In this document: one piece after another, positions 44,125 to 63,319 of the stretch
Layout: each line of letters begins with the position of its first letter
Position numbering within the stretch: the stretch's first letter is position 1
Notes under the pieces: model-generated
Told to the model about the DNA's origin: nothing
The model's input: only the letters and a program-made list of their open reading frames with translations
Database searches by the model: none
Made by a program: the position numbers and the translations under genes
Virus record (IMG/VR): IMGVR_UViG_3300017917_002918
Location: 32,001-96,000 of that record
Origin: a virus
Reading direction: 5' to 3' (one strand)
Length of the DNA stretch: 64,000 nt

Positions 44125-44170
44125 GTAAAACTGTTAATTTAGCTGAATTTTTGTGACCTAAAACCGTTGA
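44125..44170 (+). repeat. Extended junction site: 18-bp core plus accessory motif
   Basis: GTAAAA-CTGTTA-ATTTAG, 16 bp, TAAAACCGTTGA. Confidence 0.65.
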
Positions 44171-44183
44171 CACATCTATGTTG

Positions 44184-45200
44184 TTAAATATTACCAATGT
44201 CACTATTTAATGAATTTTTGTGATTTTCTATCCTAATATTTGCCAAATTAAAATATGTTTCATCCATTTCAAACCCTATGTAATTTCTATTAGTATTAAC
44301 ACATGCAATGGCTGTAGTCCCACTTCCCATAAATGGATCAAATATTGTCATATATTCATCACTGCTGTGTTTTATTATATTTTCAATTAATTCAACTGGT
44401 TTTGGTGTAATGTGTCCATGCTTGGGTGCAGGAGGATATAACCATACATTACTATTAGCCCTCAAATCTTCTTTAACTGTAGCTGTATTAAATTTATATC
44501 TTAAATCTTCATATTCTCTTCTTAAATCTTCATATTCTCTAAACCCAGCCCATTTATTAATATTTAGTTTGTCTACCATTTCTTGATAAACTTCTTTTGT
44601 GCCTAAATCCCATTGGGTTGTTTTCCAGTAAAAAGAATGTTCGGCTTTTCTATGTCCTAATTGCTCATTGATTTTTTTTAGTCCCAACCCTATGTATTCT
44701 TGTAAATCTTTAAAATATTTTCTTAATGAAGAGAAGTTATTGGTGTCCAGCATCACAGTATTTAATCCAGTTTCATCTTGAAAGGTATAATACAATATAT
44801 ATTCGGTGAAACCATTATAATAATTTCTCATCATATCAATACTTAATCTTTGCTGAACATATCCGTAATTTTTAAAATTTGGATCAATTTTATTCCATGT
44901 TATCAATTGTTTAAATACAAATTTACTATTTTTATTCAGCCAATTTTGCAATTCTACAATCTGCATAAAATCATTGTGAAAGAAATAAAAACTACCATTG
45001 TCTTTCAATACTCTTTGACATTCAGTAAACACCTTACCCATAAAATCTATGTAATCACTTTTATTTTTCCATTTATCCCATCGCTTATCTTTCCCAATGT
45101 TATATGGAGGATCTGCAACTATTAAATCGATACTCTTGTTTGGCATCAGTTTCATACCCTCTAAACAATCCTGATTATATATTTTATTTATCTCTAACAA
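44184..45200 (-). CDS. Beta-class N4/N6 DNA methyltransferase
   Basis: ADPPY precedes DPFMGSGTT; H-TPKP. Confidence 0.9.
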   Translation of the reverse strand: MLEINKIYNQDCLEGMKLMPNKSIDLIVADPPYNIGKDKRWDKWKNKSDYIDFMGKVFTECQRVLKDNGSFYFFHNDFMQIVELQNWLNKNSKFVFKQLITWNKIDPNFKNYGYVQQRLSIDMMRNYYNGFTEYILYYTFQDETGLNTVMLDTNNFSSLRKYFKDLQEYIGLGLKKINEQLGHRKAEHSFYWKTTQWDLGTKEVYQEMVDKLNINKWAGFREYEDLRREYEDLRYKFNTATVKEDLRANSNVWLYPPAPKHGHITPKPVELIENIIKHSSDEYMTIFDPFMGSGTTAIACVNTNRNYIGFEMDETYFNLANIRIENHKNSLNSDIGNI

Positions 45201-45236
45201 ATCAATTCACCTCATTATTATTTTTTGATTACATAA

Positions 45237-45485
45237 TCAAATACTCGTTTTATTTCGATTTCCCCTACTAAGCTCATCGAGGTTATCTTTTAAATTACAA
45301 TAATGAACATTAGAAAAACTAAGTTTTACCATACCTTCATGTCTTAACCAGCCTGTATTTTTCTCTAGTAATTCAATATCATATGATGTTTCACCATTTA
45401 CTTTATTAATTTTTGTTATTTTACACTTTTTGCCATAGTATTCGTTATCCATATTGATATAAAGTATATCGCCTATATTCCTCAT
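45237..45485 (-). CDS. Hypothetical cassette-like ORF
   Basis: Bounded by sites 45498 and 45236; C-terminus NKTSI is encoded by the site. Confidence 0.6.
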   Translation of the reverse strand: MRNIGDILYINMDNEYYGKKCKITKINKVNGETSYDIELLEKNTGWLRHEGMVKLSFSNVHYCNLKDNLDELSRGNRNKTSI

Positions 45486-45515
45486 AATAACCCTCCTATA
45501 AAAATTCGATTTTAT

Positions 45516-45722
45516 TTACAATCTTCTTCCACACATAGGACAAAAATTTATTCTTTTATCTATACCAAAATTTACTTCTAATTCATTGCTATCAACTGTT
45601 TTAACTCTTATATGTCTTAATTTTGGAATAAATATTATATCTAAACTTCTTATAGTTCCATCTGATGATTTATAATCTTCAAGAATTGTTTGTTCAACAT
45701 TACAGTAATCGCAGTCACACAT
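45516..45722 (-). CDS. Small Zn-ribbon protein
   Basis: CDYC...INFCPMCGRRL. Confidence 0.65.
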   Translation of the reverse strand: MCDCDYCNVEQTILEDYKSSDGTIRSLDIIFIPKLRHIRVKTVDSNELEVNFGIDKRINFCPMCGRRL

Positions 45723-45752
45723 TAATATATTTCCTCCTCATCAAATCTTACC

Positions 45753-46598
45753 TTATTGTATTTCTGGTATTTGTTCTTTTATGTATTTATAAACGTGCCA
45801 TTGTAATAAATTCGGAGTAGCAGTCATTGGATATATTTCTTCCCAAATGACATCTTTTAATAGGCTTATTATTATTTCTTTATATTCTTTTTTATTGATT
45901 TTTATAAAAAACTCTTTAGCGTATTGCCTATCATTGTCTGATAAGAACCCACCTAATTTCAGTCCATTTTGACCAGTTCCCCATGCAAGTATTCTAATGT
46001 CATAATCAAAAATATCTTTAGTTATTACTTTTTGTCTTTTGGGGTTGCTATTTTTTATACTTTCCCTTATTTCCCTTATTTCCATTATTTCCATTATTTT
46101 ATAATTTTGTTTTTTATTTAATCCATTGTAGGGTCTTTTATAAATATTAAAACAACAATGCACTTTTCGATCACTATATTGTCTTATTCCCAAATCCTCA
46201 CTATGTATTAAATCAAATTTATATATTGATTGAGTGTTATTTAATTGGCTAATTGGAAGTATAAATGCCACATAATCCGACAATTCAAAAGACTTATTAC
46301 AAAACGCCTTAGTTAAATTATTTTTATTCCCATATGGGGGATTTCCGATTACACACCTTCCAGATTTATATTTCAAATCATTTATTAAATAATCTTGTTT
46401 AATAATTCTATCGTCTTCTGGTTCTATATCATAAGCTAAAGTTTCTTTTGGCAAATAATTCAGAAACACACCTGCTCCTGCACTCGGTTCTATGTATTCT
46501 GATATATTTTGCTCACCTATTATTTCTTTTGTTTTATTAACTATGTATTCTGCTAACTCTTGCGGAGTATAATATTTATCATTCAATATTTTAGCCAT
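45753..46598 (-). CDS. Amino-methyltransferase (N6-adenine, gamma-like), paralogue 1
   Basis: DKYYTP, EPSAGAG, IGNPPYG, AFILP. Confidence 0.8.
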   Translation of the reverse strand: MAKILNDKYYTPQELAEYIVNKTKEIIGEQNISEYIEPSAGAGVFLNYLPKETLAYDIEPEDDRIIKQDYLINDLKYKSGRCVIGNPPYGNKNNLTKAFCNKSFELSDYVAFILPISQLNNTQSIYKFDLIHSEDLGIRQYSDRKVHCCFNIYKRPYNGLNKKQNYKIMEIMEIREIRESIKNSNPKRQKVITKDIFDYDIRILAWGTGQNGLKLGGFLSDNDRQYAKEFFIKINKKEYKEIIISLLKDVIWEEIYPMTATPNLLQWHVYKYIKEQIPEIQ

Positions 46599-46667
46599 AA
46601 TATACCTCCATTATTATTTTTATTCTTATATTTTGATTATTTAACTTCTGATCAAATCTTACTTTTA

Positions 46668-47051
46668 TTACCATGTGATTGTGGGATAAATTTCTTCACA
46701 TTTTCCATTTTTAAAAACCCATCTCCACAAATTATCATCTTCTCCACTCATTTCAATATATGAATCCTCTTCAACGTAAGGAGCTATAGAATTAAATATT
46801 TCTAAATCATCACCTAGTTTTTCTCCTGAGAAATAATCAATTTTATAATCGCCATTTGTATTTTCAACTAGAGGGTATCTAATTTCTTCAAATGCTTCTT
46901 CTATGGTTTCACAATCTAAAATTGTATCAATATCTACCCACATTAATTTTTCCTTAGTTTTAACAAAATCTTTTAATGCTTTCAAAACAAAATTGGCATT
47001 TTCTTTCTTTATAACAAATCTAATTTCGTTACTTTCTATACAATATCCCAT
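46668..47051 (-). CDS. Hypothetical cassette-like ORF
   Basis: Bounded by sites 47067 and 46651. Confidence 0.6.
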   Translation of the reverse strand: MGYCIESNEIRFVIKKENANFVLKALKDFVKTKEKLMWVDIDTILDCETIEEAFEEIRYPLVENTNGDYKIDYFSGEKLGDDLEIFNSIAPYVEEDSYIEMSGEDDNLWRWVFKNGKCEEIYPTITW

Positions 47052-47080
47052 AATAAACCTCTCCTTATAAATACTTAAAT

Positions 47081-47878
47081 TTATTGTATTTCTGGTATGT
47101 ATTTTTTCAACACATCATTAATGTGAAATTGTTGAATTTTTAACATTGCAATACAGTTTAATTCTTTTTTCCAGTCTACATTTTTCAAAACATTAATTAT
47201 TTCGTTTTCTAAGACTTTGTTGTTGATAATTATTTTGTATTCAGCAGAATAACTCTCATTATCATTTAATATTTTTCCTGCGGAAGAATCTCCCCAATAA
47301 CACATTCTAATATTGTAATCTTTGATTGCATTAAACTTTTTACTATCTTGTCTTACTATGGTGATGTCTTTTAATTTATTTTTTTGCTTTTTATTAAACT
47401 CTCCGTTTTCAGGTCTTTTATAAATATTAAAACAACAATGTAAATCTATATTAGAATATGTTTGAACTCCTAAATCTTCACTATGTATTAAATCAAATTC
47501 ATATAAACTATTTGTATTATTTAATTGGCTTATAGGTAGTATAAAAGCTACATAATCACTGAGTTCTATTGCTTTTTTGTAAAATTTTTGTGCCATATGC
47601 ATATTTCTTCCGTATGGAGGATTTCCTATAATTAATCTTCCCCATAAATATCCGCACCCCAACTCCAAAAAATCTTGTCTTTTTATTGTAGGATGCTCAG
47701 GTTCAATATCATATGCCCAACATAATGACGGAACATTTAAACTAAAGCTTCCATTCCCTGCCGATGGTTCTATAACTTCAGAAATATTTTCTTCACCTAT
47801 GATTTCATAGGTTTTATCAATACAATATTGTGCTAAATCAACAGAAGTATAATATTTGTCTAATGCTATTTTGCTCAT
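47081..47878 (-). CDS. Amino-methyltransferase (N6-adenine, gamma-like), paralogue 2
   Basis: DKYYT, EPSAGNG, IGNPPYG, AFILP. Confidence 0.8.
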   Translation of the reverse strand: MSKIALDKYYTSVDLAQYCIDKTYEIIGEENISEVIEPSAGNGSFSLNVPSLCWAYDIEPEHPTIKRQDFLELGCGYLWGRLIIGNPPYGRNMHMAQKFYKKAIELSDYVAFILPISQLNNTNSLYEFDLIHSEDLGVQTYSNIDLHCCFNIYKRPENGEFNKKQKNKLKDITIVRQDSKKFNAIKDYNIRMCYWGDSSAGKILNDNESYSAEYKIIINNKVLENEIINVLKNVDWKKELNCIAMLKIQQFHINDVLKKYIPEIQ

Positions 47879-47939
47879 ATTACTTCTCCTATCATTATTT
47901 TTATATTTTGATTATATAAAATACAATAAATTCCACAAT

Positions 47940-48167
47940 TTATTTACTTCTAAATTCTTTCATATATTCAATAGTTTCTTCTGTTAAGGGCTTACCATTT
48001 ACCATGTGATTTAAAAATTCTTGTAATTGTTCTATTTTTACCCAATATTTAGATGGGGCTTTCAACCACCAATTAGAAGTCTCACATTTCTTAAATTCAT
48101 TAATAACATCCAATGCTATCATTAATTCTTTTATGTCTCGTTTTGACTTTAGAAAGTCAGTAATCAT
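47940..48167 (-). CDS. Hypothetical cassette-like ORF
   Basis: Bounded by sites 48183 and 47926. Confidence 0.6.
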   Translation of the reverse strand: MITDFLKSKRDIKELMIALDVINEFKKCETSNWWLKAPSKYWVKIEQLQEFLNHMVNGKPLTEETIEYMKEFRSK

Positions 48168-48196
48168 ATAAATTACCTCCTTATAAATTCACAATT

Positions 48197-48595
48197 TTAT
48201 ACACTCTTTTTTATGGTTTCCAAAATTCTATCGCTCAAAGAATACGAAAGGGCTTCTATTATTTTATCATTATAAGAGTCATCTTCGATTTGTTGTATTT
48301 TTGTAATTAATAATTCAGGATTATCTTGTAAGTATTTTTCTATTATTGCCCCACCCCCACACTCCATAACTTTAAAAATAAAATAACTTTCTTCTTCTAT
48401 TGATTCTTTCACCCTATTACTCAGTTCCTCTTTATACAATGGGATTAAGTCACGAATTAACCCATCTCTTATGCTTTCTGTGATAAGTTCAGCCAAATAC
48501 TTTTGTCCTATATTGGCAATTTTGTTTCTCAATTCAGAAATTATTATTTCTTTAATTTCAAACCTGTCTAAGTAATTTTCGATATTTATATCCAC
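48197..48595 (-). CDS. Hypothetical cassette-like ORF
   Basis: Bounded by sites 48613 and 48183. Confidence 0.6.
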   Translation of the reverse strand: MDINIENYLDRFEIKEIIISELRNKIANIGQKYLAELITESIRDGLIRDLIPLYKEELSNRVKESIEEESYFIFKVMECGGGAIIEKYLQDNPELLITKIQQIEDDSYNDKIIEALSYSLSDRILETIKKSV

Positions 48596-48625
48596 AAATA
48601 TTCACCATCCTTATAAATTCATAAT

Positions 48626-48910
48626 TTATCTATATTCCCATTCATTTGTTTCCTCGTTAAATATCATAAAAGCTCTATCCATAATACACTTCTTATCATC
48701 TAAATTCCAAAGTTCCTGTAAATTATCTCTTTCAGAATTAGTATCTGTGTCGATAGACGTTAATTTATTGTCTTTTTCGGACTCTTCTCTTACTTCAATG
48801 AGAATTTTTAATGCATCCAATACATCTCCGTTAAAATCATCTGGTAAATTTAGCACTAACTCCCTTATGTAAAATATTTTTTTTGATTTCATATTATCCT
48901 CCTTATTCAA
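48626..48910 (-). CDS. Hypothetical protein
   Basis: Stop codon lies inside site 48613. Confidence 0.55.
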   Translation of the reverse strand: MNKEDNMKSKKIFYIRELVLNLPDDFNGDVLDALKILIEVREESEKDNKLTSIDTDTNSERDNLQELWNLDDKKCIMDRAFMIFNEETNEWEYR

Positions 48911-49226
48911 TATCTGGTAATTCGATAGTCTTACCAGCCATCATATGTGTACAATCTGACAAGTATTCAATTATCCCATCTGTTACGAATGAATGACAAA
49001 CTTCTGTTACATACTCACCTTCCCACCCTTTAGGAGCTGGATTTTCATTACTGTAACCTTTAGGATGTTTCCATTTAACTAACATTGATGCCCTAAATGT
49101 TGGGTTATTAACGTCACCATTAAACGCCCATCTACTATCAAACATATGGCTTCTTCTACAAGCAGGACATTCTATTAGATAGTAAATTGTGCCGTCATTG
49201 TTGATTCCTTTTAATACTTTTGACAT
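48903..49226 (-). CDS. DUF6527-like Cys/His metal-binding protein
   Basis: CPAC...H...W-FNGD...PTF..S...CHSFVTDG-I-YL-DCTH..AG. Confidence 0.6.
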   Translation of the reverse strand: MSKVLKGINNDGTIYYLIECPACRRSHMFDSRWAFNGDVNNPTFRASMLVKWKHPKGYSNENPAPKGWEGEYVTEVCHSFVTDGIIEYLSDCTHMMAGKTIELPDIE

Positions 49227-49360
49227 GTTGTTCTCCTTATAAAGTTCATGATTTATTGCATCCCTACATATCTGTATTCGGCAAGATCATCTAGTGCCTT
49301 CTTTGTTCTTTTACACTTATTTTTATATCTACTAATATTCCTCTTATAACTCATCAAATA

Positions 49361-49609
49361 TCACCTTTTTCTATACAATTTAGCTATTCCCAGTATCTTT
49401 TTATTCAAATCAGCTCTTTTCTCATCAGAAATAGTATAGCTATATACTGTCATAAAATCTCCAACCATAATCTCTGTGTTTCCATATTCAAATGTTTCAG
49501 AGTATAAATTACAATTTGTACAACTATATTTAAACTCTACTTCTGATTGTTCGTCTGAATAACTATAAACTTTTATTAAATCTTTATCACATATTGGACA
49601 TTTAATCAT
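49361..49609 (-). CDS. Small Zn-ribbon protein
   Basis: CPIC...CTNC. Confidence 0.55.
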   Translation of the reverse strand: MIKCPICDKDLIKVYSYSDEQSEVEFKYSCTNCNLYSETFEYGNTEIMVGDFMTVYSYTISDEKRADLNKKILGIAKLYRKR

Positions 49610-49797
49610 CGCAATTCTCCCAAAACTCTATCATAACTATTCCATGTAAGTTTAATTACTCTTCTATCACCATTAGTTGAATATACAACTTCTGCTTCTG
49701 AGCTACACTTTGAACATCTTAGCCAATCTATTCTAACTGAGATGTCATTCACATCATTATAGCAAGCCATTTCTGTTTTACATTTTATACATTTCAT
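49606..49797 (-). CDS. Small Zn-ribbon protein
   Basis: CIKC...CSKC. Confidence 0.55.
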   Translation of the reverse strand: MKCIKCKTEMACYNDVNDISVRIDWLRCSKCSSEAEVVYSTNGDRRVIKLTWNSYDRVLGELR

Positions 49798-49837
49798 GAG
49801 TTCGCATCCTCCTGATCAAATACTTCATTTATTGTTA

Positions 49838-50152
49838 TTACTTATAAAATATCTTTCTACAATCTGGACACTTCCACATCTGTTTGATTACTGAGTCACT
49901 AAACTTCTCACAATAACCTGTATTAAAAATGTTTTCATGATTACACATCTCTTGTGTTAATCGCCTTAATTGTTCAGTTCTGTTTTTTATTCCATTTTGA
50001 ATCTCTTCAATGTGATTTTCTAATTTTGGAATGATACTATCTAAGTGTTTCTTTGCACAAATAGGGCACAGTGACTTTTCTTTGCAACGTCCAATAGGAT
50101 AAATCTTCTTTGTTTCAGTGCCACACCAATTACAAAATACCATTAATCTCAC
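49838..50152 (-). CDS. Zn-ribbon/coiled-coil protein
   Basis: CNWC, CPIC, CPDC. Confidence 0.55.
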   Translation of the reverse strand: MRLMVFCNWCGTETKKIYPIGRCKEKSLCPICAKKHLDSIIPKLENHIEEIQNGIKNRTEQLRRLTQEMCNHENIFNTGYCEKFSDSVIKQMWKCPDCRKIFYK

Positions 50153-50182
50153 ACTCCAATCAATTTGTTTTATCTTGTTTTT

Positions 50183-50350
50183 TTAATACTCCCAATGTCC
50201 CCAGTAAAATGTTACCAGATAACTCCCACAGTCTTTACAATAAAGACTGAATTCCACTTCGATTGTATCATTTTCGTCTTTAGTTGTTTTAATGTTTCTT
50301 TTTTCATGATTAGTAGAATTGCATTTATGACATGTATAAGTATCTATCAC
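50183..50350 (-). CDS. 55-aa Zn-ribbon protein (not in ORF track)
   Basis: GTG start after AAGGAG; CHKC...CKDC. Confidence 0.55.
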   Translation of the reverse strand: MIDTYTCHKCNSTNHEKRNIKTTKDENDTIEVEFSLYCKDCGSYLVTFYWGHWEY

Positions 50351-50364
50351 ACAACCATCTCCTT

Positions 50365-50410
50365 ATAAAACATAGATTTTACTTGCTTTTACGATCTCTA
50401 AAACTCTTAT
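50365..50410 (+). repeat. Extended junction site: 18-bp core plus accessory motif
   Basis: ATAAAA-CATAGA-TTTTAC, 16 bp, TAAAACTCTTAT. Confidence 0.6.
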
Positions 50411-51345
50411 GTATCAACATTATTATTTTTTAATAAATTATCTACAATGAGCTTAACGACATTTAAACTCATAGCATTTCCAAATAGTCTATATGCCTGT
50501 GTATCACTAACAACAATCTTATATGTATCGGGCAAACCCTGTAGTCTAGCACATTCTCTAGGAGTTAATCTTCTTAGATTCGTCTTGCCAATTGGGTTGT
50601 ATTCTGTGTGATAATAATTGTCTTGACTTGCCCTGTGCATTTTGAATAATGTTGAACATAGCGGTCTTGCTATTTTTAAATCTGTCTCTGGGTTTGCATC
50701 CCAACCACCTGTCCCTCTGCTTAAAACTGTTTTTAACATTTTTTCTGTAAGATAGTATTTATCATCTACCTTTGGTTCAAGTAAATCTTGAACACTCAAA
50801 TTGATGGATTGGTGTTTAGGAAACTCAAAATTAAATTCACCAAAATCTTTATGTTGTCCAATAATATAAACTCTCCGTCTTGTGTGTGGTATTCCGTAAT
50901 CCGAAGTATTTAAAATTTTATAACTAATATTATAATTTAATTCAAACAGTTCTTTTACAATTTTAAAATCATTTTTATTATTTGAAGTTGTTAGTTTTTG
51001 AACATTTTCAAATATAAAATATCTAGGTAATTTATAATTTAGTATGCGTATGTAATCATAAAACAACTTACTAGCACTCCCTTTTAATCCCATCCCATCT
51101 TTCTTCATTAAAGATATGTCAGTACATGGACTTCCACCTATCAAAATATCAAAATCAGGCAATTCCTTTTCATTAATTTGTGTAATATCCCCATAATTTT
51201 GTCTATTGGGGAAGTTTTCATTATAATTTTTTTCTGCATAAATATCTATTTCAGAATATCCAACGCAATCAGCATATAAATCTAAAGCCATACCACCTAT
51301 TCCAGTACCAGAAAATAATTCAAAATATTTTAATTTACCCATCAC
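50407..51345 (-). CDS. DNA cytosine-C5 methyltransferase
   Basis: FSGTG, GSPCTD, ENV, RRRVY, GNA. Confidence 0.9.
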   Translation of the reverse strand: MMGKLKYFELFSGTGIGGMALDLYADCVGYSEIDIYAEKNYNENFPNRQNYGDITQINEKELPDFDILIGGSPCTDISLMKKDGMGLKGSASKLFYDYIRILNYKLPRYFIFENVQKLTTSNNKNDFKIVKELFELNYNISYKILNTSDYGIPHTRRRVYIIGQHKDFGEFNFEFPKHQSINLSVQDLLEPKVDDKYYLTEKMLKTVLSRGTGGWDANPETDLKIARPLCSTLFKMHRASQDNYYHTEYNPIGKTNLRRLTPRECARLQGLPDTYKIVVSDTQAYRLFGNAMSLNVVKLIVDNLLKNNNVDT

Positions 51346-51395
51346 TTTTCTCCTACTATCATTTTTTAACTCACCATCCCAATAAAATATTCCTT

Positions 51396-51698
51396 TTACT
51401 TATTTTTTAATTCTTGCAATAAATAACTGTAATGTATTATAAGAGCTTCATTTTCTGCGATTTCTTTTTTGTATTTTTCATTATCTCTAATACAGATATC
51501 TATAATATCACTATACTGTCTTATTAAATCATCTTTATTGGGTTGAATTGTTTCGATTCTCACATATTCTTTGTAGCACGTTGGACACATATTGTAGGGA
51601 AGCCTACTTGTCATATATTGAAAATATTTATTGCAAATTTTACAATGACACATAAATAACACCACTCTTTTATTTTTAATTTGATTTATTCTTGCCAA
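51396..51698 (-). CDS. Zn-ribbon/coiled-coil protein
   Basis: CKIC...CPTC; stop codon inside site 51382. Confidence 0.55.
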   Translation of the reverse strand: MARINQIKNKRVVLFMCHCKICNKYFQYMTSRLPYNMCPTCYKEYVRIETIQPNKDDLIRQYSDIIDICIRDNEKYKKEIAENEALIIHYSYLLQELKNK

Positions 51699-51855
51699 AG
51701 TTACCAGAGCAATTCCATACTACACCCACAGAACCGAATACTCGCTCAATCTTCTCATTACCACACTTAGGACATTGTTTTAGCGGAATTTGACTCATTT
51801 TTAACTCTAACTCTATTTCACCACAAGTCTCGCACTTAAACTCATATGTAGCCAT
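51676..51855 (-). CDS. FmdB-family Zn-ribbon protein (59 aa, not in ORF track)
   Basis: MATYEFKCETCG...CPKCG...ERVF. Confidence 0.7.
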   Translation of the reverse strand: MATYEFKCETCGEIELELKMSQIPLKQCPKCGNEKIERVFGSVGVVWNCSGNFGKNKSN

Positions 51856-52316
51856 CTTTTTACCTCACATTTCTTTCATATTATAATTATCTCTAACATG
51901 GTCACTAATGATTTGTATTTGACTCATCACAAATTCATCATTGGCTATAGTAGGATGCAATCTCGCCGTACAAGTTAATTCCTTACCCATTTGTTTGTAT
52001 TTGCCATAATTAAACAGCAGTATCACCAGTGGTATTTCTGTACGATTCTTTGTCAATAGTTTTTGCAATAATTTAAATATCATAATTCAATTAACCTCGT
52101 TTCAAATTAATATTATTGTTTAATTATGTCCTACAGTCTATATAGCCCTGTTTTACAATAGTATCAAACTCTTTTTTGCTTAGAGTCATGTAATATTCGT
52201 TAGAGTGTTCAAATTGCATATAGTACACGACAATTCCGAAAGCTCCGCCACGATAATGGCTTGTTAGTCTTAATTTAGAATCAACTATTGTTATCACTCC
52301 AATCTCATGAGCAGTT

Positions 52317-52631
52317 TTAATCTACAAATTCATAATCTGTCCATCCAAGTTCACAATATTTCTGCTTTATTTTTGCAATCTCCAACCATCTAGTTTCATT
52401 ATTTATCCTACGTGGTGTATAAACACGCCAATTTGCCACATAATCCGAATCTTCACACATATATTCGATTGAAAATTTAGTCTTGCGATGTCCCTTTAAA
52501 TAGAAAAACTTATTGCCAATCTTCTCAACGGTTGCTTCTTCAATATGATCAATGATATCGTCTGTTATATATCGAGATTTATTATTTATTGGTTTCAAAT
52601 ATACTATTTGACCAACTTTGAGTTTTTCCAT
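52317..52631 (-). CDS. Hypothetical beta-barrel-like protein
   Basis: LKVGQIVY...VEKIGNKF pattern. Confidence 0.5.
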   Translation of the reverse strand: MEKLKVGQIVYLKPINNKSRYITDDIIDHIEEATVEKIGNKFFYLKGHRKTKFSIEYMCEDSDYVANWRVYTPRRINNETRWLEIAKIKQKYCELGWTDYEFVD

Positions 52632-52668
52632 ATCAACATCATCCTTTTTAATCTATTTTAACACATGT

Positions 52669-55340: not shown

Positions 55341-55673
55341 TCATTTCATTAATACTTAGTTCCTTGTTCAGTCTTTCCCTGAAGATAGCTCGCAAGCTAT
55401 CACCTTCAGTTCTACTTACTCTTACATCTAACCAACCATCCTTTTGCCTTATTTCAGCGTACTCATCTTTTTCGGTTATTACCCTAATCTTCTTTAACTC
55501 AACTTCTTGAACAATCTCAATTATATGTTTAACACTTACCATTACTATTGTTATACCTCCATAATCATATTTTAATTACTATAACTAATTATAACATAAT
55601 TGCGAATGTTGTCAAGAGAAAATGAAAAAAACAACAACATATTTCAATTATATATTGTTGCTTTTTCGTGATC

Positions 55674-55946
55674 TCACTCAGAAAACACAATCACGCTTCC
55701 ATTTAATAGTACCAATGTTACAGCATTTAACATATCATCATATTCACACTTTACAATGTCACTAATGATAATACTCATGTCTGCGTAATCCTTCGTACTT
55801 CCAAAATACAGAATCAAATCTTGAACATCATAATAGAAATCTTCCAAAATAATGTTACCCATAATTCCTGTTACTAAGTTCATTGTTACTGATTTTCCTT
55901 TAAGGTTAGACAAACCTTCTGACAAAATCTTCTGATATGTAGTCAT
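55674..55946 (-). CDS. Hypothetical protein
   Basis: ORF with RBS. Confidence 0.5.
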   Translation of the reverse strand: MTTYQKILSEGLSNLKGKSVTMNLVTGIMGNIILEDFYYDVQDLILYFGSTKDYADMSIIISDIVKCEYDDMLNAVTLVLLNGSVIVFSE

Positions 55947-56003
55947 AATAACACCTCTTAAATATTATATTTTAATTATATGTAAAGAAAGGCAAAGCCT
56001 TTC

Positions 56004-56948
56004 CTATAGCATCTCTTGTAGTCTCGCCTTAGTCTTCGTCCAGTAACCAGCACTATAGCCAAATCTCTCATTAATTACAATCCAATCTTCCTTGTCTAGC
56101 TCGCCTTTCTCTTCCTTGATTTGTTTAGCCATGTCTAGCATACCTGAGTACCACATTCCTGTAACAGTCCAGTATTGATTTCCCCAATATTGCTTAATTC
56201 TATTCAACCTTGCAGTTATGTTTGTTGCTTTAATTGCTCCTTCACATTGTCTAGCGGCAACTCTCAACACGTAATCTGTTTTTGTTATGACATAATGATT
56301 AGATTTAAGATCTGGTGAATCCTCCCCATTATTCTTATAGTAGAATTCCTCATCTAATGCTCTCCTAATGTAATCTATAGCCAAATCGGACACTATAATC
56401 TTTCTAGTTTCACCATTGTTTTTAGTTAACGTCAATTCATTTGAAATAAATCCTACATCTGACTCTTTTAAGTTGATAATCTCTTCTGCATCTTCACCTT
56501 TAACACCTTCAAATGGCAATATCAAACATAATGCATCCTGTGCATTAACACATGAACCTGCAATTTCTTCTAATTCTGCACGGGTAACGTATTTCTTTCC
56601 CTGTATATTTACATCTACATACTTTAATAAATCTTCATAACCACCTATGCCTTGCAAATAATTAACTTTTGTTTCAATATATCCTTCTTTGTTCGCAAAG
56701 TCTAGGTATATTTTTAACACAGATAATACACTTGCTACAGCCTGAACACTACCATTACAATAACTTTTCAACAAAGAATCTAATTCATTATTGTCCATCT
56801 CATATATGTCTTTATTAAGCATTGATTCTGTTTCATAAGATTTTTGAAGAATGTACTTATAATAAATTTGTGTACTTGCAGAGTAATTTTCCAAAAATCT
56901 ATTTTTAAAATCTTGATTATACAAGACTTGACTTAAATATTTGTTCAT
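56004..56948 (-). CDS. Integrase-fold repressor, SPbeta MrpR/YopR (SroF)-like
   Basis: YN..K.RFL, E...NKDIY, YLDFA, YVT..EL...VNAQD...L.FEGV.G...E...L, Y.KNG pattern; lacks HxxR. Confidence 0.75.
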   Translation of the reverse strand: MNKYLSQVLYNQDFKNRFLENYSASTQIYYKYILQKSYETESMLNKDIYEMDNNELDSLLKSYCNGSVQAVASVLSVLKIYLDFANKEGYIETKVNYLQGIGGYEDLLKYVDVNIQGKKYVTRAELEEIAGSCVNAQDALCLILPFEGVKGEDAEEIINLKESDVGFISNELTLTKNNGETRKIIVSDLAIDYIRRALDEEFYYKNNGEDSPDLKSNHYVITKTDYVLRVAARQCEGAIKATNITARLNRIKQYWGNQYWTVTGMWYSGMLDMAKQIKEEKGELDKEDWIVINERFGYSAGYWTKTKARLQEML

Positions 56949-56973
56949 AATTTCAAATCCCTTCTATACTATA

Positions 56974-58260
56974 TTAGTTATTATTAATATTTTCAGATAT
57001 AATATCGACCAATTTTTTCATGCTCTGTTTATTGATACTTTTTATATCACTAATATTAATTTTGCTATTTAACGAATCGTTGTCTAGCAACTCTAATATA
57101 ATATCTTCCCAATTCCCCATTTCATAAGTAGCATATATTAAACAAATATAATATGCCCAAGTAGTTTGTTCTACTGCCACCTTGATCAAATCTTGTTTCA
57201 ACTCTATAATGTGATTCAATCCATCAATGATACGCTTACTATACTTTACAATATCTAGTCTTTCCTTTGGTTCAAAAGTATATTCAATTGCATCAGCTAG
57301 TATATCAAATGCAACAAATGCTTTACCTTTTTTGATCATGAAGTCATCAAACGATACTAAACCTTTGAGGTATGAATTAGAATTCTCATTGATCTTCTTA
57401 ACTATTAAATTTGAAATACTATCTGAGTTCAATGATTTAATATATTTCTTATTCATTTTGTTCTTCTTATCTTCTTGAACAATATACCTTCTTGCCTTAT
57501 CTAAGTCAAAATTTGTGATACTCACACCTGTTCTAAACTCAACATTAGGATTCTCTTGTACAGCATAAATCATGCCTAAACTTCTATGGAATCCATCAAG
57601 AATATTTGTTTCTCCTGCATATATAGTAAGAGTTTTTTCTTTCTCATTATATTCAAATTGTTCCTCGCCACTTTGCATTATGTTAAAAGTGATATAGTTT
57701 GATATAAATTTAGAAGAAAGAATATCTTTCTTTATTTCTTGAATAGATGTCTTATTGATATCTATTTCTTCGATAATCTTGTCTTTATATTCCTTCTTCT
57801 TCAGTGCTCTCTGTGTTTCGGGATTGTATATGATAACTCGTCTACTATATAGTTCAGCTATCTCTTGAGCAGTCATATATGTTACCCACATGTCTGAATT
57901 AATCTTCTCTACATTTTTAAATACAATCGGATATTTTGACTTTCCCTCAATATCAGCCTTCCAATTGTCACCTTCCTTGATTTCAAGTTCTGTAAAGAAC
58001 TTTTCTGGATTGATTCTTTCTTCACTCGTAGCTTCATATAATGATTTTGTAAATATATACAACATAACTTGACTAATTGTATTAATTGGTGTTAGTAACA
58101 TCAAAATCGAATTAGCATCACCAGCTAATAAGTTATGTCCCTTGAATATGTCTGCTACCTTCATTTTAACATGCCTATTCTTTGCATATTCACTAATCAT
58201 TATTGTTAATTCTTTCTCTAATACGTCTCTTTTTGTTCTCATAATTAATATATCCTCCAT
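56974..58260 (-). CDS. DGQHR/DndB-like protein, SPbeta YopQ (SroE)-like
   Basis: YNPETQR and ILDGFHR motifs; immediately upstream of MrpR-like gene. Confidence 0.7.
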   Translation of the reverse strand: MEDILIMRTKRDVLEKELTIMISEYAKNRHVKMKVADIFKGHNLLAGDANSILMLLTPINTISQVMLYIFTKSLYEATSEERINPEKFFTELEIKEGDNWKADIEGKSKYPIVFKNVEKINSDMWVTYMTAQEIAELYSRRVIIYNPETQRALKKKEYKDKIIEEIDINKTSIQEIKKDILSSKFISNYITFNIMQSGEEQFEYNEKEKTLTIYAGETNILDGFHRSLGMIYAVQENPNVEFRTGVSITNFDLDKARRYIVQEDKKNKMNKKYIKSLNSDSISNLIVKKINENSNSYLKGLVSFDDFMIKKGKAFVAFDILADAIEYTFEPKERLDIVKYSKRIIDGLNHIIELKQDLIKVAVEQTTWAYYICLIYATYEMGNWEDIILELLDNDSLNSKINISDIKSINKQSMKKLVDIISENINNN

Positions 58261-58402
58261 TATTAAATTTGCATCTATAATTAGTTTATAATATTATTGG
58301 CACTAAGTCAATAATATATGTATAAAAAAGGAAAATTAATTTATGTTCATAGATTTACTAATTGACATATTATCATATGCTCGTATATTGCGTCAAGAAT
58401 AA

Positions 58403-58705
58403 TTAAATCATAGCGTACAATTTAATTAATTTAGTATCCATTCCCTTACGATTTAAGACATAATCATCATGACGTTGTATGTAATCAAATACATCTGACA
58501 AATCATAATACTCTCTGTCCCACATGTGCTGATAATGATATTCTTTTGTGTTTCGTCTTGTATTCTTATGCATTAATTGAAATATATCATCATATATATC
58601 CACTTTCCACGAGTCTAATTTTGAGGACACAAGAACTACGTTTTGTAGCACTTGCACCCTAAAACCATAACTCATTGCTAATGTTACAACATCTGTCTCA
58701 CACAC
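58403..58705 (-). CDS. Hypothetical protein
   Basis: ORF downstream of MazF-like gene. Confidence 0.5.
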   Translation of the reverse strand: MCETDVVTLAMSYGFRVQVLQNVVLVSSKLDSWKVDIYDDIFQLMHKNTRRNTKEYHYQHMWDREYYDLSDVFDYIQRHDDYVLNRKGMDTKLIKLYAMI

Positions 58706-58726
58706 AATATAATAAACACCTGCTTT

Positions 58727-59314
58727 CTATACATATACTAATTCTTTTGTTTTAAAATACTCTTTAGTTTCCTTTATAACTTCTTTATAATCTCTGCCTA
58801 ATTTTGCACAATACTCCATTAATTCTTTCATTAGTAATTGTTTAGCTTTTATTTGTTGATTTAATTGTTTAGCCAATATATCCAACTGCCTAATACTAAG
58901 CATTATTTCCCTGACATATTCAAAATTCAAACTCATAATTTGATTATTGATACCGACTTGAATCATTACTGCATTTTCAAGTTGTGCCATGGTAGTTTCT
59001 GTAACTTCGCCAATTTTAAATTTTAATCTAGATTTGTCTATAGTTTGTGATTGTTCACACAACGCTATTGATTCTGATTTCAAACCCGAATCTAAACCCA
59101 CTAACACATGAGTTGGAACTTTTTTCATTTTATTTATGTTTGATGATAATGGTATCACCGTAATTGTTGGACTATAAGTATTACATTTATTGTTGCTTAA
59201 ACAAATTACTGGTCTTAAACCTTGTTGAATACTGGTTTTTTCTGAACTACTCATATAATTCAAATCTGCAAACCATATTTCACCCCTTTTTATTGTTGTA
59301 ATTGTGCTGCTCAT
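58727..59314 (-). CDS. PemK/MazF-family endoribonuclease-like protein with helical C-terminal extension
   Basis: IKRGEIWFADL...QGLRPVICLSN...SPTITVIPLSS...S.ALCEQ..TIDK.RL..KIG. Confidence 0.85.
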   Translation of the reverse strand: MSSTITTIKRGEIWFADLNYMSSSEKTSIQQGLRPVICLSNNKCNTYSPTITVIPLSSNINKMKKVPTHVLVGLDSGLKSESIALCEQSQTIDKSRLKFKIGEVTETTMAQLENAVMIQVGINNQIMSLNFEYVREIMLSIRQLDILAKQLNQQIKAKQLLMKELMEYCAKLGRDYKEVIKETKEYFKTKELVYV

Positions 59315-59440
59315 ACTACCAAACTCCCTTCAAATCATCTTATAATTAATTTATTGTTGCTTCTTGAAACTATAATACCACCAAATTATTACAATGTCAA
59401 CAAAAAAGATCATAAATTAATTATAAGATTTTTAATTTTA

Positions 59441-59743
59441 TTAAATTAACTGTTGAAGCTCCTCTCTAACATCGTCATCGAGGATATCTCCGACCATATC
59501 ATTTAATTTAACTAACATCGACTTGAGTTTATTATATGCAATAATTGAATCGTTATACATTAATTTGGCAGATTCAACATCATTTTTTAATTTTATAACT
59601 TCTTGCTGAAGTTGATACATTTCTAAAGTTTTGAAGGGTAGATATGATTGTAATTGCAATTGCAATTGATATATGTGAGATAATAGCTCATGTTCTCTAT
59701 CTGCTGTTATCTGTGGTGATTTATTCTCTAATTCTTCTGACAT
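59441..59743 (-). CDS. Hypothetical coiled-coil protein
   Basis: ORF in operon. Confidence 0.5.
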   Translation of the reverse strand: MSEELENKSPQITADREHELLSHIYQLQLQLQSYLPFKTLEMYQLQQEVIKLKNDVESAKLMYNDSIIAYNKLKSMLVKLNDMVGDILDDDVREELQQLI

Positions 59744-59745
59744 AG

Positions 59746-59949
59746 TTACATCACTTCCTGTACTTGATTATTCATTATTTTAATATGTTCTTTGTCATCT
59801 TTCCAAACATATTCGACTCTGTAATCGCATTTGACACACCATCCTAATTTACCATTCGTTGCAATTTGATTCAAGCAATTAGGACATTTTTCGTTTCTGT
59901 ACCAACAAGTATGCAATGTATTGTCCATTACTTTATCACTCCAATTCAT
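59746..59949 (-). CDS. Small Zn-ribbon protein
   Basis: CPNC...CVKC. Confidence 0.5.
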   Translation of the reverse strand: MNWSDKVMDNTLHTCWYRNEKCPNCLNQIATNGKLGWCVKCDYRVEYVWKDDKEHIKIMNNQVQEVM

Positions 59950-59952
59950 ACT

Positions 59953-60156
59953 TTATTTATTCCACGTCTCGGATATTTCACCCGTTGCACCACAATTATT
60001 GCAATAAACAGGGTAGGTTTCCACATCTTTTGCCATGCCTTTTAAATATGTAATTTCACCGAATTTTACTTTTGGACTTTTGCATTTAGGACAATATATG
60101 AGAGTCCCTTCGAATCCAAACCACCAATTACTAATTGCTTTATATATTGATTTCAC
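59953..60156 (-). CDS. Small Zn-ribbon protein (Lar-like pattern)
   Basis: CPKC...V-CNNCGATG. Confidence 0.5.
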   Translation of the reverse strand: MKSIYKAISNWWFGFEGTLIYCPKCKSPKVKFGEITYLKGMAKDVETYPVYCNNCGATGEISETWNK

Positions 60157-60792
60157 AGATAATACACCTACGCTTTCACATTTAATTTTGCAAAACTGTT
60201 CTTGCAGTAATCTTTAGCCTTTTTTAATGCTATTTTCCTATCTTTATCACCAATCCCGAAAACTTCGATATGGGAATATCCAGTCCTAACCAAACAAAAC
60301 CAACCATTTTCATTGATAAAATCGTACTGTCTCATAGCTTTATCACCTCATAAATTTCTCATTTTATTATCCTTTTATCTAATAAAAGAAATAATTTATT
60401 GTTATTTCAACCTACCCAATATTGATAATATTGTCCATATACACACTATAGTTCCAGCTAAATAAATGTAAGACGAAATATAATTTTTTCTTAAACTATA
60501 TTTAATGGCAAGTATGCTAAAAATTAATTGTAATATAAATAATATAAATACCATCACTCAACACTCCCATCTTCAATTTTAACATCCCATGATTCTGAGT
60601 CTGTTGAATAAATCACAAATTGTTGCTGAAATTCATCTTCAGGCACTTCTATTACTAACACATCAAGTTTAATACTACGTATTACGGCGTAATCTCTAGG
60701 TAAATATCCCTTGAATTTAAATGATACTTTCATTCCTACTTTTAATATGTCCTCATCCCAAACTAATATAGGTATCATTTTTTGCTTAGTCA

Positions 60793-61011
60793 TTACTCAC
60801 CACGCTCCTTATCCTTCTCTGCCTTACAAAACTCTTCAAAGCTTAGTACATCGGTATCAATCAAATCATCTATACCTCCAGTTAATAAGTCCAACAAATA
60901 TGCATCATACTTGTCTCTCATTACTATAAGATCGCCTCTCTTACTTAGTGTACCTTTTTCTGCTGAATCAATTGTTGTGATTGAGCTTCCATTTACAAAT
61001 TCTATTTTCAT
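60793..61011 (-). CDS. Hypothetical protein
   Basis: RBS abuts site 61023. Confidence 0.55.
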   Translation of the reverse strand: MKIEFVNGSSITTIDSAEKGTLSKRGDLIVMRDKYDAYLLDLLTGGIDDLIDTDVLSFEEFCKAEKDKERGE

Positions 61012-61760
61012 ACATACTCCTTATAAAATCAGCATTTTACTGTAGTTAATTTGTTCTCTTTTCATAAAATTTAATGATGTTGTATATCATTTTTAAAACA
61101 TTATCGGCTGTTATTTCTTTTTCTGTAGCTTCAAGCACAAGAGACATAATTGTTGTTCTAAAAACATAGTTTTTTTCAAAAAATTCCTTGTAATCATTAT
61201 TAGAATTAATTAATAGCTCAACTTCAGAAGTTTTCATAATTCACATCTCTTTTATATTACTGACTAATTTGTTTTTTACAAGAGATAGTCCGTAAAGATT
61301 CAAATTTTCAAAATCCACAGGTGAACTATCTAGGTACTCAAAATATTTTGCTTCCGCACAGCTAGGAGAACAATAAAATTCAGTCAACCATTTGCTATAC
61401 TCAACTTCCATACCTTTAACCAATACAACTTTACATTGTCCACATAATATATTTTTACTCATATTAATTATTAACCCCCTGTTTTATCTTCTTTTACAGA
61501 ATAATATTATATCAATTTAATATTGAATATTAAACTACCAATAAATTAATTAATTTGGAATTTCACAGAGTCTATTTACTATTTCGTAAAACATATTAAG
61601 ACATTCAGAGCTACAAAATTTTCCATGAGATAATATTTCAACATAGTTAGTTTCATCATCACACATTAAGCATTTGTCATATTTGTCTTTTTTCATTAAC
61701 ATATATATCCCCATATCATTATCTGTAAATTTCAACATTATCACCATCCTTATTATTAAA

Positions 61761-62021
61761 TTATACCTTATAAACCAAGTGTCTTATTTCCTTGTGTGTT
61801 ACAGTGGTTATGATACAGCTTAATTTATAATTAGTTACTACTAAATCTGAAATAATACATTCTTTGGGAATACTAATTCCATAACAATGACCAATTACAG
61901 ATGATCTTTTTATTGCTATTTTATTTTTAATCTCTTCAACATAACTTTCCCAACTCTCCACTTCAATTACTCTTGATTGAAAATCTTGATCATATATATT
62001 TGTTTCAATGACCATAATCAT
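61761..62021 (-). CDS. Hypothetical protein
   Basis: RBS abuts site 62038. Confidence 0.5.
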   Translation of the reverse strand: MIMVIETNIYDQDFQSRVIEVESWESYVEEIKNKIAIKRSSVIGHCYGISIPKECIISDLVVTNYKLSCIITTVTHKEIRHLVYKV

Positions 62022-62054
62022 CTAAATCACCATCCTTATAAATTCGTTCTTTTA

Positions 62055-62318
62055 TTACAATTTTAGCTTCTTTAGTTCCTTTATTAATTTGTTTACTTCT
62101 TTGACACAAAATTCTTCTAATCCACCAGCTTCTTCGATCTCATCGCTAGAATCTAATTCAGAATTATATATCTGAATTCCTATGAACTCTATTATAGACA
62201 CAAACCCATCTGTTATTAGATCAAATCTAAATCTACTAAAATTATCTTCTTTTCCAAAAAGTCTTATTTCAAAAAGTCTATCATTTAAATTAGATACCAC
62301 ATCTACTTCATTTATCAT
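62055..62318 (-). CDS. Hypothetical cassette-like ORF
   Basis: Bounded by sites 62334 and 62038. Confidence 0.6.
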   Translation of the reverse strand: MINEVDVVSNLNDRLFEIRLFGKEDNFSRFRFDLITDGFVSIIEFIGIQIYNSELDSSDEIEEAGGLEEFCVKEVNKLIKELKKLKL

Positions 62319-62350
62319 TTAAATCACCTCTCGATCAAATCATGTTTTTA

Positions 62351-62806
62351 TTACGTTATTTTGCGAAAGAAATCCCAAGGTAAAGACTTTGTTTTAACTG
62401 TGGTAGATGGTGGAACTGGTTCAGATTTCTTTGTTTTTTCTTTATTAACAAAATCCAATATCTTCTCAGTTAATTGCATTGCTCCTTCTGTTGTGTGAAA
62501 AACCAAACCTCGCTCATAATTCCTATTATCAAACCCATCATCCTGCCAAGTAAGCTGAGTATAACCTTTATTATCGTCAATGCTTGTAAGATAATAAATA
62601 TCCCCTACTTTGGGCTTTCCGATTTTTCTTACCGTTATAAAGCCTCTGATTAAATCCAGTAAAACATCATCGTTTCTATCGCCATTTTTATCTTCTACTC
62701 CATCTTCGGTCATTTTAAATATTAAATTATCCATAAACTCATTGATTCCAAATAATTCTCCTAATTCTAAATCAAACATTTTGGCTATTTGTTCCATTCT
62801 CTCCAT
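62351..62806 (-). CDS. Hypothetical phage protein
   Basis: Stop codon overlaps site 62334. Confidence 0.55.
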   Translation of the reverse strand: MERMEQIAKMFDLELGELFGINEFMDNLIFKMTEDGVEDKNGDRNDDVLLDLIRGFITVRKIGKPKVGDIYYLTSIDDNKGYTQLTWQDDGFDNRNYERGLVFHTTEGAMQLTEKILDFVNKEKTKKSEPVPPSTTVKTKSLPWDFFRKIT

Positions 62807-63319
62807 CTAAACCATCTCCTTTTAAGTACTTTTCATAATATTCCTGCTTCTAAATATGCCTTACTTATGTTTTCAGCATTATTAACTATATTAATCATTT
62901 CTTTTGCTCTTAGCTCAATTTCTTCGTTTGACTTACATTGTTCAAGTATTTCTAAAATAATTTTCATAAAATCATGTTTATCCATAACAACAATCTCCTT
63001 TATACCCTCTTCCCGATCTGAATGTCGGAAACATATTTTGCTACCGATCTTAATGTCGGGAGCACACTTACCGATAAAATGAAAGTTTTACAATATTTAC
63101 TTCACATTACTTGAAGCATTAAACTCACGATTCTCATTAACTATTTTCTCCATAATATGTAACAATGCTTGATAATTGCATTTACCACATGACTTATTGC
63201 TACTTCCGAACTCGCATGGTAAACATTGCTCATTAACCACTTGATTAAACAATAAATCCATTTTTTCTTTAATGTTCTTTTCCATAATTCACCTCGTTAT
63301 CATGATTTAATTATATATT

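Follow-up and report, generated by a model that had tools for sequence, protein, structure and literature searches.

Phage genomes are mosaics that join at gene boundaries, and it has long been asked how far these joints reflect guided exchange and how far selection that acts after random joining. The main documented guiding sequences are the promoter-early stem-loops (PeSLs) of T4-type phages (Arbiol et al. 2010, PMC2839356; Comeau et al. 2014, PMC4122927), between neighboring copies of which mini-circles have been shown (PMC2839356, PMC4122927). Here, we describe an element that is far smaller than PeSLs and more regular in build, a dyad of 18 bp whose arms are constant and whose center of six nucleotides is specific to its position. 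It lies at gene junctions of the virus record IMGVR_UViG_3300017917_002918, a complete genome of 167,401 bp with direct terminal repeats and 31% G+C. The stretch analyzed, hereafter the window, comprises 64,000 nucleotides (bases 32001–96000 of this record), and coordinates refer to it unless genome coordinates are named. The dyad is common to SPbeta, its relatives, and several uncultivated large phages, and accessory genes—in the window including a set of DNA methyltransferases—appear to have been reassorted around it. The idea is open to bench test, since Bacillus subtilis 168 is a host of SPbeta, phi3T, and the Goe phages.

Judged by likeness, PeSL-mediated shuffling in T4-type phages is the closest known analogue of the dyads. 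In each case, a short motif conserved in intergenic DNA is concentrated where small nonessential genes form hyperplastic regions, both motifs are sites of insertions, deletions, and replacements between close relatives—for the dyads, seen in SPbeta-like phages only—and the ascription of exchange to homologous recombination between copies resembles what we propose below. However, a PeSL joins a sigma-70-like promoter to a terminator stem-loop and its copies are alike, whereas dyads span 18 bp, sit inside operons, bear neither a promoter nor a stable stem, and each have their own center.

The attC sites of integrons are imperfect palindromes of 57–141 nt that fold as single strands with extrahelical bases. 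Integrons resemble the present arrays in their co-oriented open reading frames (ORFs), promoterless in integrons and mostly so here, in sites whose short inverted ends are conserved and whose middle varies, and in a stop codon that is often found within or beside the site. On the contrary, the dyads of the focal genome are only 18 bp long with a 6-nt center and show no significant fold, the window contains neither an IntI-type integrase nor an attI/Pc arrangement, and the dyad center is kept by array position among relatives and does not travel with the cassette. A geometry of inverted arms around a 6–8-bp spacer is found in heterospecific lox/FRT spacer variants and in Xer/dif core sites, where recombination is limited to partners with the same spacer, which would permit exchange between two genomes and no deletion inside one; known recombinase core sites have arms of 11–13 bp and a defined enzyme. 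The dyad resembles these in its 6-6-6 geometry of inverted arms, with spacing 6 alone enriched, but its 6-bp arms are below the about 9–13 bp for specific binding and one of them also serves as a stop codon. Boundary or linker sequences at lambdoid gene junctions, reportedly described within the modular theory by Susskind and Botstein in 1978 and by Clark et al. in 2001, are likewise short conserved gene-boundary sequences guiding module exchange; these, however, are irregular homology stretches with no defined dyad, fixed spacing, or position-specific center.

SPbeta itself bears a further short AT-rich dyad that is repeated in intergenic DNA, often just 5′ of a Shine–Dalgarno (SD) sequence. 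This SPBRE is bound by the SPbeta master repressor MrpR (YopR), a protein with a tyrosine-recombinase fold that has lost its recombinase function (PMC10516654). SPBRE reads ATACA-N7-TGTAT and is located at promoters in about 10 near-identical copies, whereas the dyads described here read TAAAW-N6-WTTTA—a different sequence and spacing—and are located inside operons. The junction dyads are an element separate from, and more numerous than, SPBRE in the same phage.

Enrichment and architecture of the junction dyads

Genes across 7–64 kb of the window are oriented along the minus strand, and at 44–64 kb about 50 mostly small ORFs are arranged in operons headed by consensus sigma-A-type promoters (e.g., at 63477, 59400, 55615, and 54150 in a promoter scan). 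The motif RTMAAW-N6-WTTTAB yields 36 strand matches at 23 distinct places in the window, compared with 5.81 ± 2.64 (maximum 15) in 100 dinucleotide shuffles, and 18 of these 23 places fall within 44125–63091, a stretch that makes up 30% of the window (binomial p = 2e-6). When TAAAW-Nk-WTTTAT is searched in the whole 167,401-bp genome, the sole peak is at k = 6 (19/21 matches, against 1–8 for k = 2–12).

It could be argued that such a motif is a by-product of a TAA stop codon, an AT-rich leader, and a strong SD sequence and forms no unit of its own—an origin that the preliminary description of this DNA had named as one that would speak against it. The TAA within the left arm and the right arm that often abuts AAGGAGG fit this view. 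In shuffles confined to the 35 intergenic stretches of the region (75% A+T), however, 0.25 sites are expected and 15 observed, with a maximum of 2 in 500 shuffles and spacing 6 alone enriched. Hence, neither base composition nor a stop codon followed by a leader accounts for the dyad. It is lacking from other small-gene arrays of the focal genome and of its relatives, and the 18-mer family recurs in unrelated phages as opposed to 0–1 matches for a reversed control. We regard a by-product as exceedingly improbable.

A spacing-6 site is present in 16 of the 50 co-directional junctions, and degenerate forms add two to three more, among them 48613–48629 (spacing 5) and 45740–45756. Read on the coding (minus) strand, the order is stop codon, dyad, SD sequence, and start, and the consensus runs from an upstream A-run through R-TAAAW, the 6-nt center, and WTTTAT to AAGGAGG, with a gap of 0–20 nt between WTTTAT and the SD sequence and the start codon 7–9 nt after the latter. 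The centers are purine-rich and often end in GA, and every center in the focal genome differs from all others. The TAA of the left arm is the true stop or an in-frame back-up stop at 12 of 16 sites (p = 8e-4), and the SD sequence starts 0–3 nt past the right arm in 11 of 17. Moreover, the right arm reads TTTGAT in 5 of 18 sites and the left arm never contains the corresponding TCA. This in-frame use of TAA, together with the arm asymmetry, makes the two halves non-equivalent, the left one serving as stop codon. As TTTATAAGGA is found in the genome solely alongside a left arm, the junction of approximately 27 nt can be regarded as one repeated module. Outside the 18 bp, conservation is not mirrored in the column counts, the right flank being formed by the SD sequence and the left one by coding sequence.

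Sites are absent from 10.5–30 kb of the window, the small genes at 26–44 kb have only two weak sites, and the matches at 44125 and 54789 are probably due to chance. A second cluster is found outside the window at 124.5–125.7 kb of the genome, on the other strand, and again follows the coding strand. Dyad-delimited units contain one to four or more ORFs, their genes are co-oriented and mostly promoterless, and sites are present at 16–19 of the 50 junctions. Several sigma-A-type promoters do lie within the arrays, with consensus promoters located in the longer, dyad-free gaps. The dyads are restricted to early-type arrays with consensus sigma-A promoters; they are elements inside early operons of small accessory genes. 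The spacing of the motif in the focal genome, its tie to junctions, and its coding-strand orientation in clusters of opposite strands support the reading of dyads as module boundaries that is developed below.

Much of the preliminary description agrees with these numbers. The six sites that it gave as examples (45498, 47067, 48183, 51382, 61023, and 62334) are all present, and the enrichment over shuffled sequence holds for the window and for junctions. Likewise, its statements that no sites occur among the core replication genes, that one arm supplies or abuts the upstream TAA with the other just before the SD sequence, and that arms are conserved with differing centers are borne out. The folding energies of eight junction RNAs range from −1.2 to −5.6 kcal/mol (z-scores of −1.45 to +0.62) and are no better than those of shuffles.

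Two other identities of the dyad were considered and rejected. An RNA or single-stranded DNA hairpin is at odds with these folds, with the absence of covariation at the inner arm pair (W/W; 11 of 18 compared with 10.3 expected), and with the TTTGAT variants, which break the stem. For a promoter, the partner hexamer is absent and the sixth-position T of the −10-like left arm is not conserved. An Rfam search gave no match at the dyad sites.

Gene replacement at dyads in SPbeta-like phages

Among GenBank phages, megablast and blastn revealed no close relative of the focal genome; protein searches of IMG/VR returned only ligase relatives of 40% identity, and a search of 5.8 billion proteins gave 59% for the best ligase and 56% for the best YopQ-like protein. 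As the focal genome thus has no close relative on record, the breakpoint test was done in SPbeta-like phages, which carry the same dyad. In SPbeta (NC_001884), spacing 6 yields 22/28 matches compared with 2–8 at other spacings, and about 15 coding-strand junction dyads are present in the yoq–yot arrays. The GenBank record annotates few of these only, as stem-loops, and in a full-text search of the SPbeta literature, which did not cover the 1999 genome paper, SPBRE and LexA boxes are described and dyads are not.

Two arrays were compared: array 1, corresponding to 110.8–134.4 kb of SPbeta, with phi3T, Goe11, Goe13, and Goe14 (12–16 coding-strand dyads in each genome), and array 2, corresponding to 82.2–101.2 kb of SPbeta, with phi3T, Goe11, and Goe13. 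In these genomes, the same 6-nt centers recur at equivalent array positions and are identical between genomes. In array 1, 17 centers are common to at least two of the five genomes, and 13 of them adjoin more than one flank type; seven of the 17 show three of the four combinations of left and right flank. Of the 115 same-centre pairs of this array, 33 agree in both flanks, 26 in the left one only, and 20 in the right one only, and 36 agree in neither—with about one identical center expected by chance. Array 2 behaves similarly, with multiple flank types at 9 of 13 centers and neither flank alike in 10 of 40 pairs. Each center hence appears as an 18–30-bp island of identity that persists as the neighboring genes on both sides change. 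The test on relatives that the preliminary description had suggested therefore finds dyads not avoided by breakpoints and same-center dyads with different neighbors.

Homology breakpoints fall at 30 of 38 dyad junctions, compared with 46 of 83 others (p = 0.015), and their excess in dyad windows over intergenic DNA is 2.5- to 4-fold. The arm variants are more telling about where within the dyad the exchange takes place. Left-arm variants track the left flank (odds ratio 3.0, p = 0.019) and not the right one (p = 0.39), and right-arm variants track the right flank (odds ratio 7.3, p = 6e-4) and not the left one (p = 0.24). Since the variants of each arm thus go with the adjoining flank, many crossovers are placed between the arms. 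When short exact islands flanked by unrelated sequence were sought without bias, the main classes were the dyads, a second leader motif, and SPBRE. At the SPbeta-group loci L154–L161, a junction module TTAGAATAAAAATAAAATTAGTGGAGG recurs beside dyads—after or before them—as well as between unrelated genes, and many upstream genes of these loci end in TCTAA or TCTAG directly abutting the dyad.

Within the focal genome, the sole case that bears on the same question is one paralogue pair. The 55-amino-acid gene at 60168–60335 (−) has a 69%-identical paralogue at genome 125702–125869 (+), so that each array holds one copy. Homology spans from the dyad to the stop codon, with 12 of 12 arm positions but only two of six center positions identical; the two units share dyad, ribosome-binding site (RBS), and ORF.

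Proposed exchange on short islands and a possible second role of the arms

From these comparisons, the dyads behave as boundaries of exchangeable RBS–ORF modules, and crossovers seem to fall inside them. The islands would be the crossover points at which promoterless modules pass between co-infecting relatives. Because differing centers leave neighboring dyads little continuous identity, exchange between equivalent positions of two genomes would be favored over deletions inside one genome. Less firmly, we propose that general or phage-encoded homology-guided recombination might act on these short islands, and not an integron-type integrase. That exchange is homology-guided on islands of 18–30 bp, as for PeSLs, with the arms kept by an expression or protein-binding role, has in our view about an even chance of being correct. 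The constant arms would probably stem from this second role, in which they would serve as a site of protein binding or as an A/U-rich, unstructured spacer for stop and restart.

Several points weigh against exchange on dyad islands. A length of 18–30 bp is short for efficient homologous recombination, and any conserved functional element between variable genes would resemble an island. The SPbeta-group counts use overlapping, non-independent genome pairs, which inflates the p-values given above, and the dyads are located in variable arrays, so that region confounds the comparison of junctions. The evidence for exchange comes from SPbeta-like phages and not from the focal genome, where the 3′ ends of both copies of the 55-amino-acid gene are dyad-free. 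Distant relatives (loci L141, L142, and L144–L147) have similar small-gene arrays without the dyad, which makes it dispensable for such arrays. Finally, the junction RNAs that fold no better than shuffles fit an open spacer, yet provide nothing positive for a role in expression.

The dyad might also be an expression or regulatory element and nothing else, that is, a stop/restart spacer, an RNA-processing site, or a regulator-binding site of early genes. Reassortment would then be passive: selection would retain the signal whenever unrelated recombination replaces a neighboring gene. The strict placement between stop codon and SD sequence on the coding strand and inside operons, the in-frame stop use, arms that are not mirror images of each other, unstructured junction RNAs, and the confinement to early-type arrays with consensus sigma-A promoters are all what such an element would lead one to expect. 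The small genes also encode a ProQ-like RNA-binding domain, and T4 reportedly offers precedents for the control of early mRNAs at ribosome-binding sites with RegA and RegB (reviewed in PMC3014915). This reading leaves unexplained, however, why position-specific centers survive the loss of both former neighbors (36 of 115 pairs in array 1 and 10 of 40 in array 2), why arm variants track their own flank, and why the spacing is fixed at 6 with almost no variants of 5 or 7. Moreover, a domain search found no helix-turn-helix domain in the 42 small proteins encoded at 45237–63814 (−), and no regulator was found. We consider a pure expression element the main rival of homology-guided exchange, possible but less likely.

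Distribution of the dyad

A scan of IMG/VR for the strict form, which gave single matches, followed by a recount in the fetched loci and a search of the whole records, led to five records with 19, 32, 16, 7, and 8 exact ATAAAA-N6-TTTTAT sites, compared with 0–1 for a backwards control. Again, the dyads follow the stop codon and precede the SD sequence of small genes. Two of the dyad-rich records encode a DnaE-type polymerase, in one case with RecJ and a RecD2-like helicase as its neighbors—a set that by its gene content is an SPbeta-like replication module. On the other side, 25 loci from other phages of about 155 kb and 31% G+C show no spacing-6 peak. Hence, the dyad is lineage-restricted and not general to AT-rich phages. 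L141 and L142 show no such peak either, despite equally dense small-gene arrays and a further integrase.

A dyad that travels with its cassette like attC was considered as well and rejected: the closest homologue of the dyad-flanked C5 methyltransferase of the window (79% identity, L144, a 214-kb phage contig) lacks flanking dyads.

Recombinase-fold proteins and the possibility of dedicated cassette exchange

Position-specific centers bring to mind a dedicated site-specific exchange of cassettes, a refinement of the idea in the preliminary description, in which a tyrosine recombinase would bind the 6-bp arms and swap strands across the center, differing centers being heterospecific. This would be a natural form of recombinase-mediated cassette exchange: centers would act as position addresses, and flanked genes would be swapped between co-infecting SPbeta-like or related phages with the array undeleted. 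If true, any RBS–ORF unit between two addressed dyads could be swapped without scrambling the array. We judge the enzymatic mechanism unlikely, and the same holds for the address-guided swapping between phages, which we also deem improbable.

The geometry of inverted arms around a 6-bp spacer does fit, the arms are kept across unrelated phages, and the centers are variable within a genome and conserved per position between relatives. Arm variants that segregate with their own flank place crossovers between the arms, as strand exchange across the center would. In addition, each dyad-rich record examined has at least two Phage_integrase (PF00589) genes—the focal genome three, plus the MrpR-like gene—and MrpR is a known case of a tyrosine-recombinase-fold protein binding a dyad of similar size, the 15–17-bp SPBRE (PMC10516654). 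Against this stand the arms, which are far shorter than those of known catalytic core sites and have asymmetric outer flanks, and the left arm, whose stop-codon constraint and coding-strand orientation point to a role in the transcript. No recombinase lineage common to dyad-rich genomes emerged, the Xer-like protein of the window being only 23% identical to YopP and YomM of SPbeta. L141 and L142 have their own integrase and MrpR-like genes, and show no dyad enrichment. In SPbeta, chromatin affinity purification sequencing (ChAP-seq) of MrpR gave peaks at SPBRE only (Kohm et al. 2023, PMC10516654).

In the window, two genes encode recombinase-fold proteins. The first is an XerC/D-like tyrosine recombinase of 307 amino acids (6122–7045, +), which the preliminary description had put forward as the cassette enzyme. 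No result ties this protein to the dyads. It scores 90 bits on the integron-integrase model TIGR02249, which has a cut-off of 265. The second (56004–56948, −) encodes a YopR/MrpR-like protein with the Pfam domains MrpR_N_CB and MrpR_C_cat (PF22822/PF22823) and 27% identity to SPbeta YopR (E = 2e-21), and does not match TIGR02249. The best models are XerC and XerD, both under cut-off. The MrpR-like gene is located mid-array and co-directional with its neighbors, the Xer-like gene is 37 kb off, and an integrase/attI/Pc layout is absent from the array end. From its sequence, 56004–56948 probably encodes the phage master repressor and not a cassette recombinase.

Hence the proposal of the preliminary description divides into two parts. 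Movable promoterless RBS–ORF units are supported, with breakpoints at dyads in the SPbeta group; the integron-like mechanism driven by a tyrosine recombinase is not, with no IntI, no attC, and arms of 6 bp. The attribution to a tyrosine recombinase also conflicts with L141 and L142, which keep both recombinase genes and show no dyad enrichment. We retain homology-guided exchange on short islands as the preferred reading.

Two further candidates were set aside. The Xer-like recombinase is not a YopP/YomM orthologue, as the identity of 23% reflects family-level similarity only. The dyad is unlikely to be the operator of an MrpR-like protein: ChAP-seq shows only SPBRE peaks, and an MrpR-like gene is present in just one of the five dyad-rich records. 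In the whole genome, there are three Phage_integrase-family genes, the MrpR-like gene, and one resolvase adjoining a TnpB-like ORF; the integrase/resolvase loci lie at genome 997–1515 (+), 38506–38997 (+), 131738–132235 (−), and 117915–118307 (−).

The MrpR-like gene has as its partner a YopQ-like/DndB-like (DGQHR) gene at 56974–58260 (−), whose product is 29% identical to SPbeta YopQ (E = 1e-37). The window thus contains the pair of neighboring YopQ-like and YopR/MrpR-like genes by which the SPbeta lysogeny module is recognized. Together with a small ORF and a MazF/PemK-like gene (58727–59314, −), they form a four-gene core (56004–59314, −) that is kept in L141, L142, and L143. This core parallels the yopQ–yopR lysogeny module of SPbeta, yet the genome has terminal repeats and the window no obvious integration module.

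A second motif at promoters

Besides the dyad, a motif TAATTAAATTATGATAAT recurs, with 76 matches genome-wide (14-mer core, up to two mismatches), outnumbering the dyad. Its window positions include 7766, 14050, 14272, 16589, 19083, 23425, 26094, 26384, 30096, 33555, 39186, 42315, 44097, 54169, 55575, 63310, and 63450. It is located just upstream of the −35 box of consensus sigma-A-type promoters, fused to their −10 box, or just 5′ of an SD sequence, a placement that matches SPBRE in SPbeta. By analogy, TAATTAAATTATGATAAT is a likely operator for the MrpR-like repressor; alternatively, it may be a promoter element specific to the phage. At promoters, it is a likelier counterpart of SPBRE in the focal genome than the dyads are.

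Individual sites and neighboring genes

All dyads of the main cluster lie on the minus strand. The lowermost one, ATAAAA-cgagta-TTTGAT at 45236–45253, has the TGA stop of the upstream ORF within its right arm, and ATAAAA-tcgaat-TTTTAT (45498–45515) is immediately preceded by a TAA stop and immediately followed by an SD sequence. ATAAAA-gtaaga-TTTGAT (46651–46668) shows tandem TAATAA stops upstream of the methyltransferase-like gene A. The left-arm TAA is the stop of the ORF 47081–47878 in ATAAAT-ttaagt-ATTTAT (47067–47084) and of 47940–48167 in ATAAAT-tgtgga-ATTTAT (47926–47943). ATAAAA-ttgtga-ATTTAT (48183–48200) is followed by AAGGAGG, and the variant ATAAAT-catgaa-CTTTAT (49239–49256) by AAGGAG; a second variant, ATAAAT-tatga-ATTTAT (48613–48629), has a 5-nt center. 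Of the two dyads that bracket a C5 methyltransferase gene, GTAAAA-tctatg-TTTTAT (50365–50382) lies downstream of it and GTAAAA-ggaata-TTTTAT (51382–51399) upstream of it and of a 6-codon leader ORF. ATAAAA-tgagaa-ATTTAT (60350–60367) is upstream of the 55-amino-acid gene, whose paralogue also follows a dyad, and stands in tandem with ATAAAT-tatttc-TTTTAT (60382–60399), with no ORF in between. Gene junctions are furthermore occupied by ATAAAT-gaagta-TTTGAT (49815–49832), GTAAAA-actaaa-TTTTAT (52943–52960), GTAAAA-tgctga-TTTTAT (61023–61040), ATAAAA-gaacga-ATTTAT (62038–62055), ATAAAA-acatga-TTTGAT (62334–62351), and GTAAAA-ctttca-TTTTAT (63074–63091).

Five genes for DNA methyltransferases or methyltransferase-like proteins are packed into 9 kb at 42319–51345 (−), namely, 42319–43980, 44184–45200, 45753–46598, 47081–47878, and 50407–51345. 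Two of the enzymes are of the C5 type (41% identical) and one is of the N6/N4 type. The other two are Eco57I-like and come from a diverged tandem gene pair (49% identical); the 3′ ends of these two genes are identical over 18 nt, and both genes have a conserved TAATCAAAATATAA leader. As a breakpoint test, this tandem duplication of methyltransferases A and B was discarded, since at 49% amino-acid identity it is too old for placing ends. At 51382, dyad and SD sequence precede the 6-codon mini-ORF (51342–51362, −), the TGA of which overlaps the ATG of the C5 methyltransferase gene (TGATG). From the sequence, this overlap looks like translational coupling via a leader peptide.

The named genes of the 44–64 kb region also include one for a protein resembling a deoxynucleoside monophosphate kinase. 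Of the products of the 42 small ORFs, one fits Phage_ProQ_C_like (E = 6e-11), and one matches a zinc-ribbon domain. Rfam places a tRNA at 63320–63430 (−) with 40.4 bits, spanning 111 nt for a model of 71 positions, and ARAGORN reports zero tRNAs in the window; from its length, the Rfam candidate probably carries an insert or intron.

Outside the window, a perfect 41-bp direct repeat is found at genome positions of about 124530–124570 and 124768–124808 (+). The repeat—composed of a small hairpin, an SD sequence, and ATGA—leads two adjacent small genes with no mutual BLASTP match. It brackets one 67-amino-acid ORF, an arrangement that could loop out this gene by homologous exchange.

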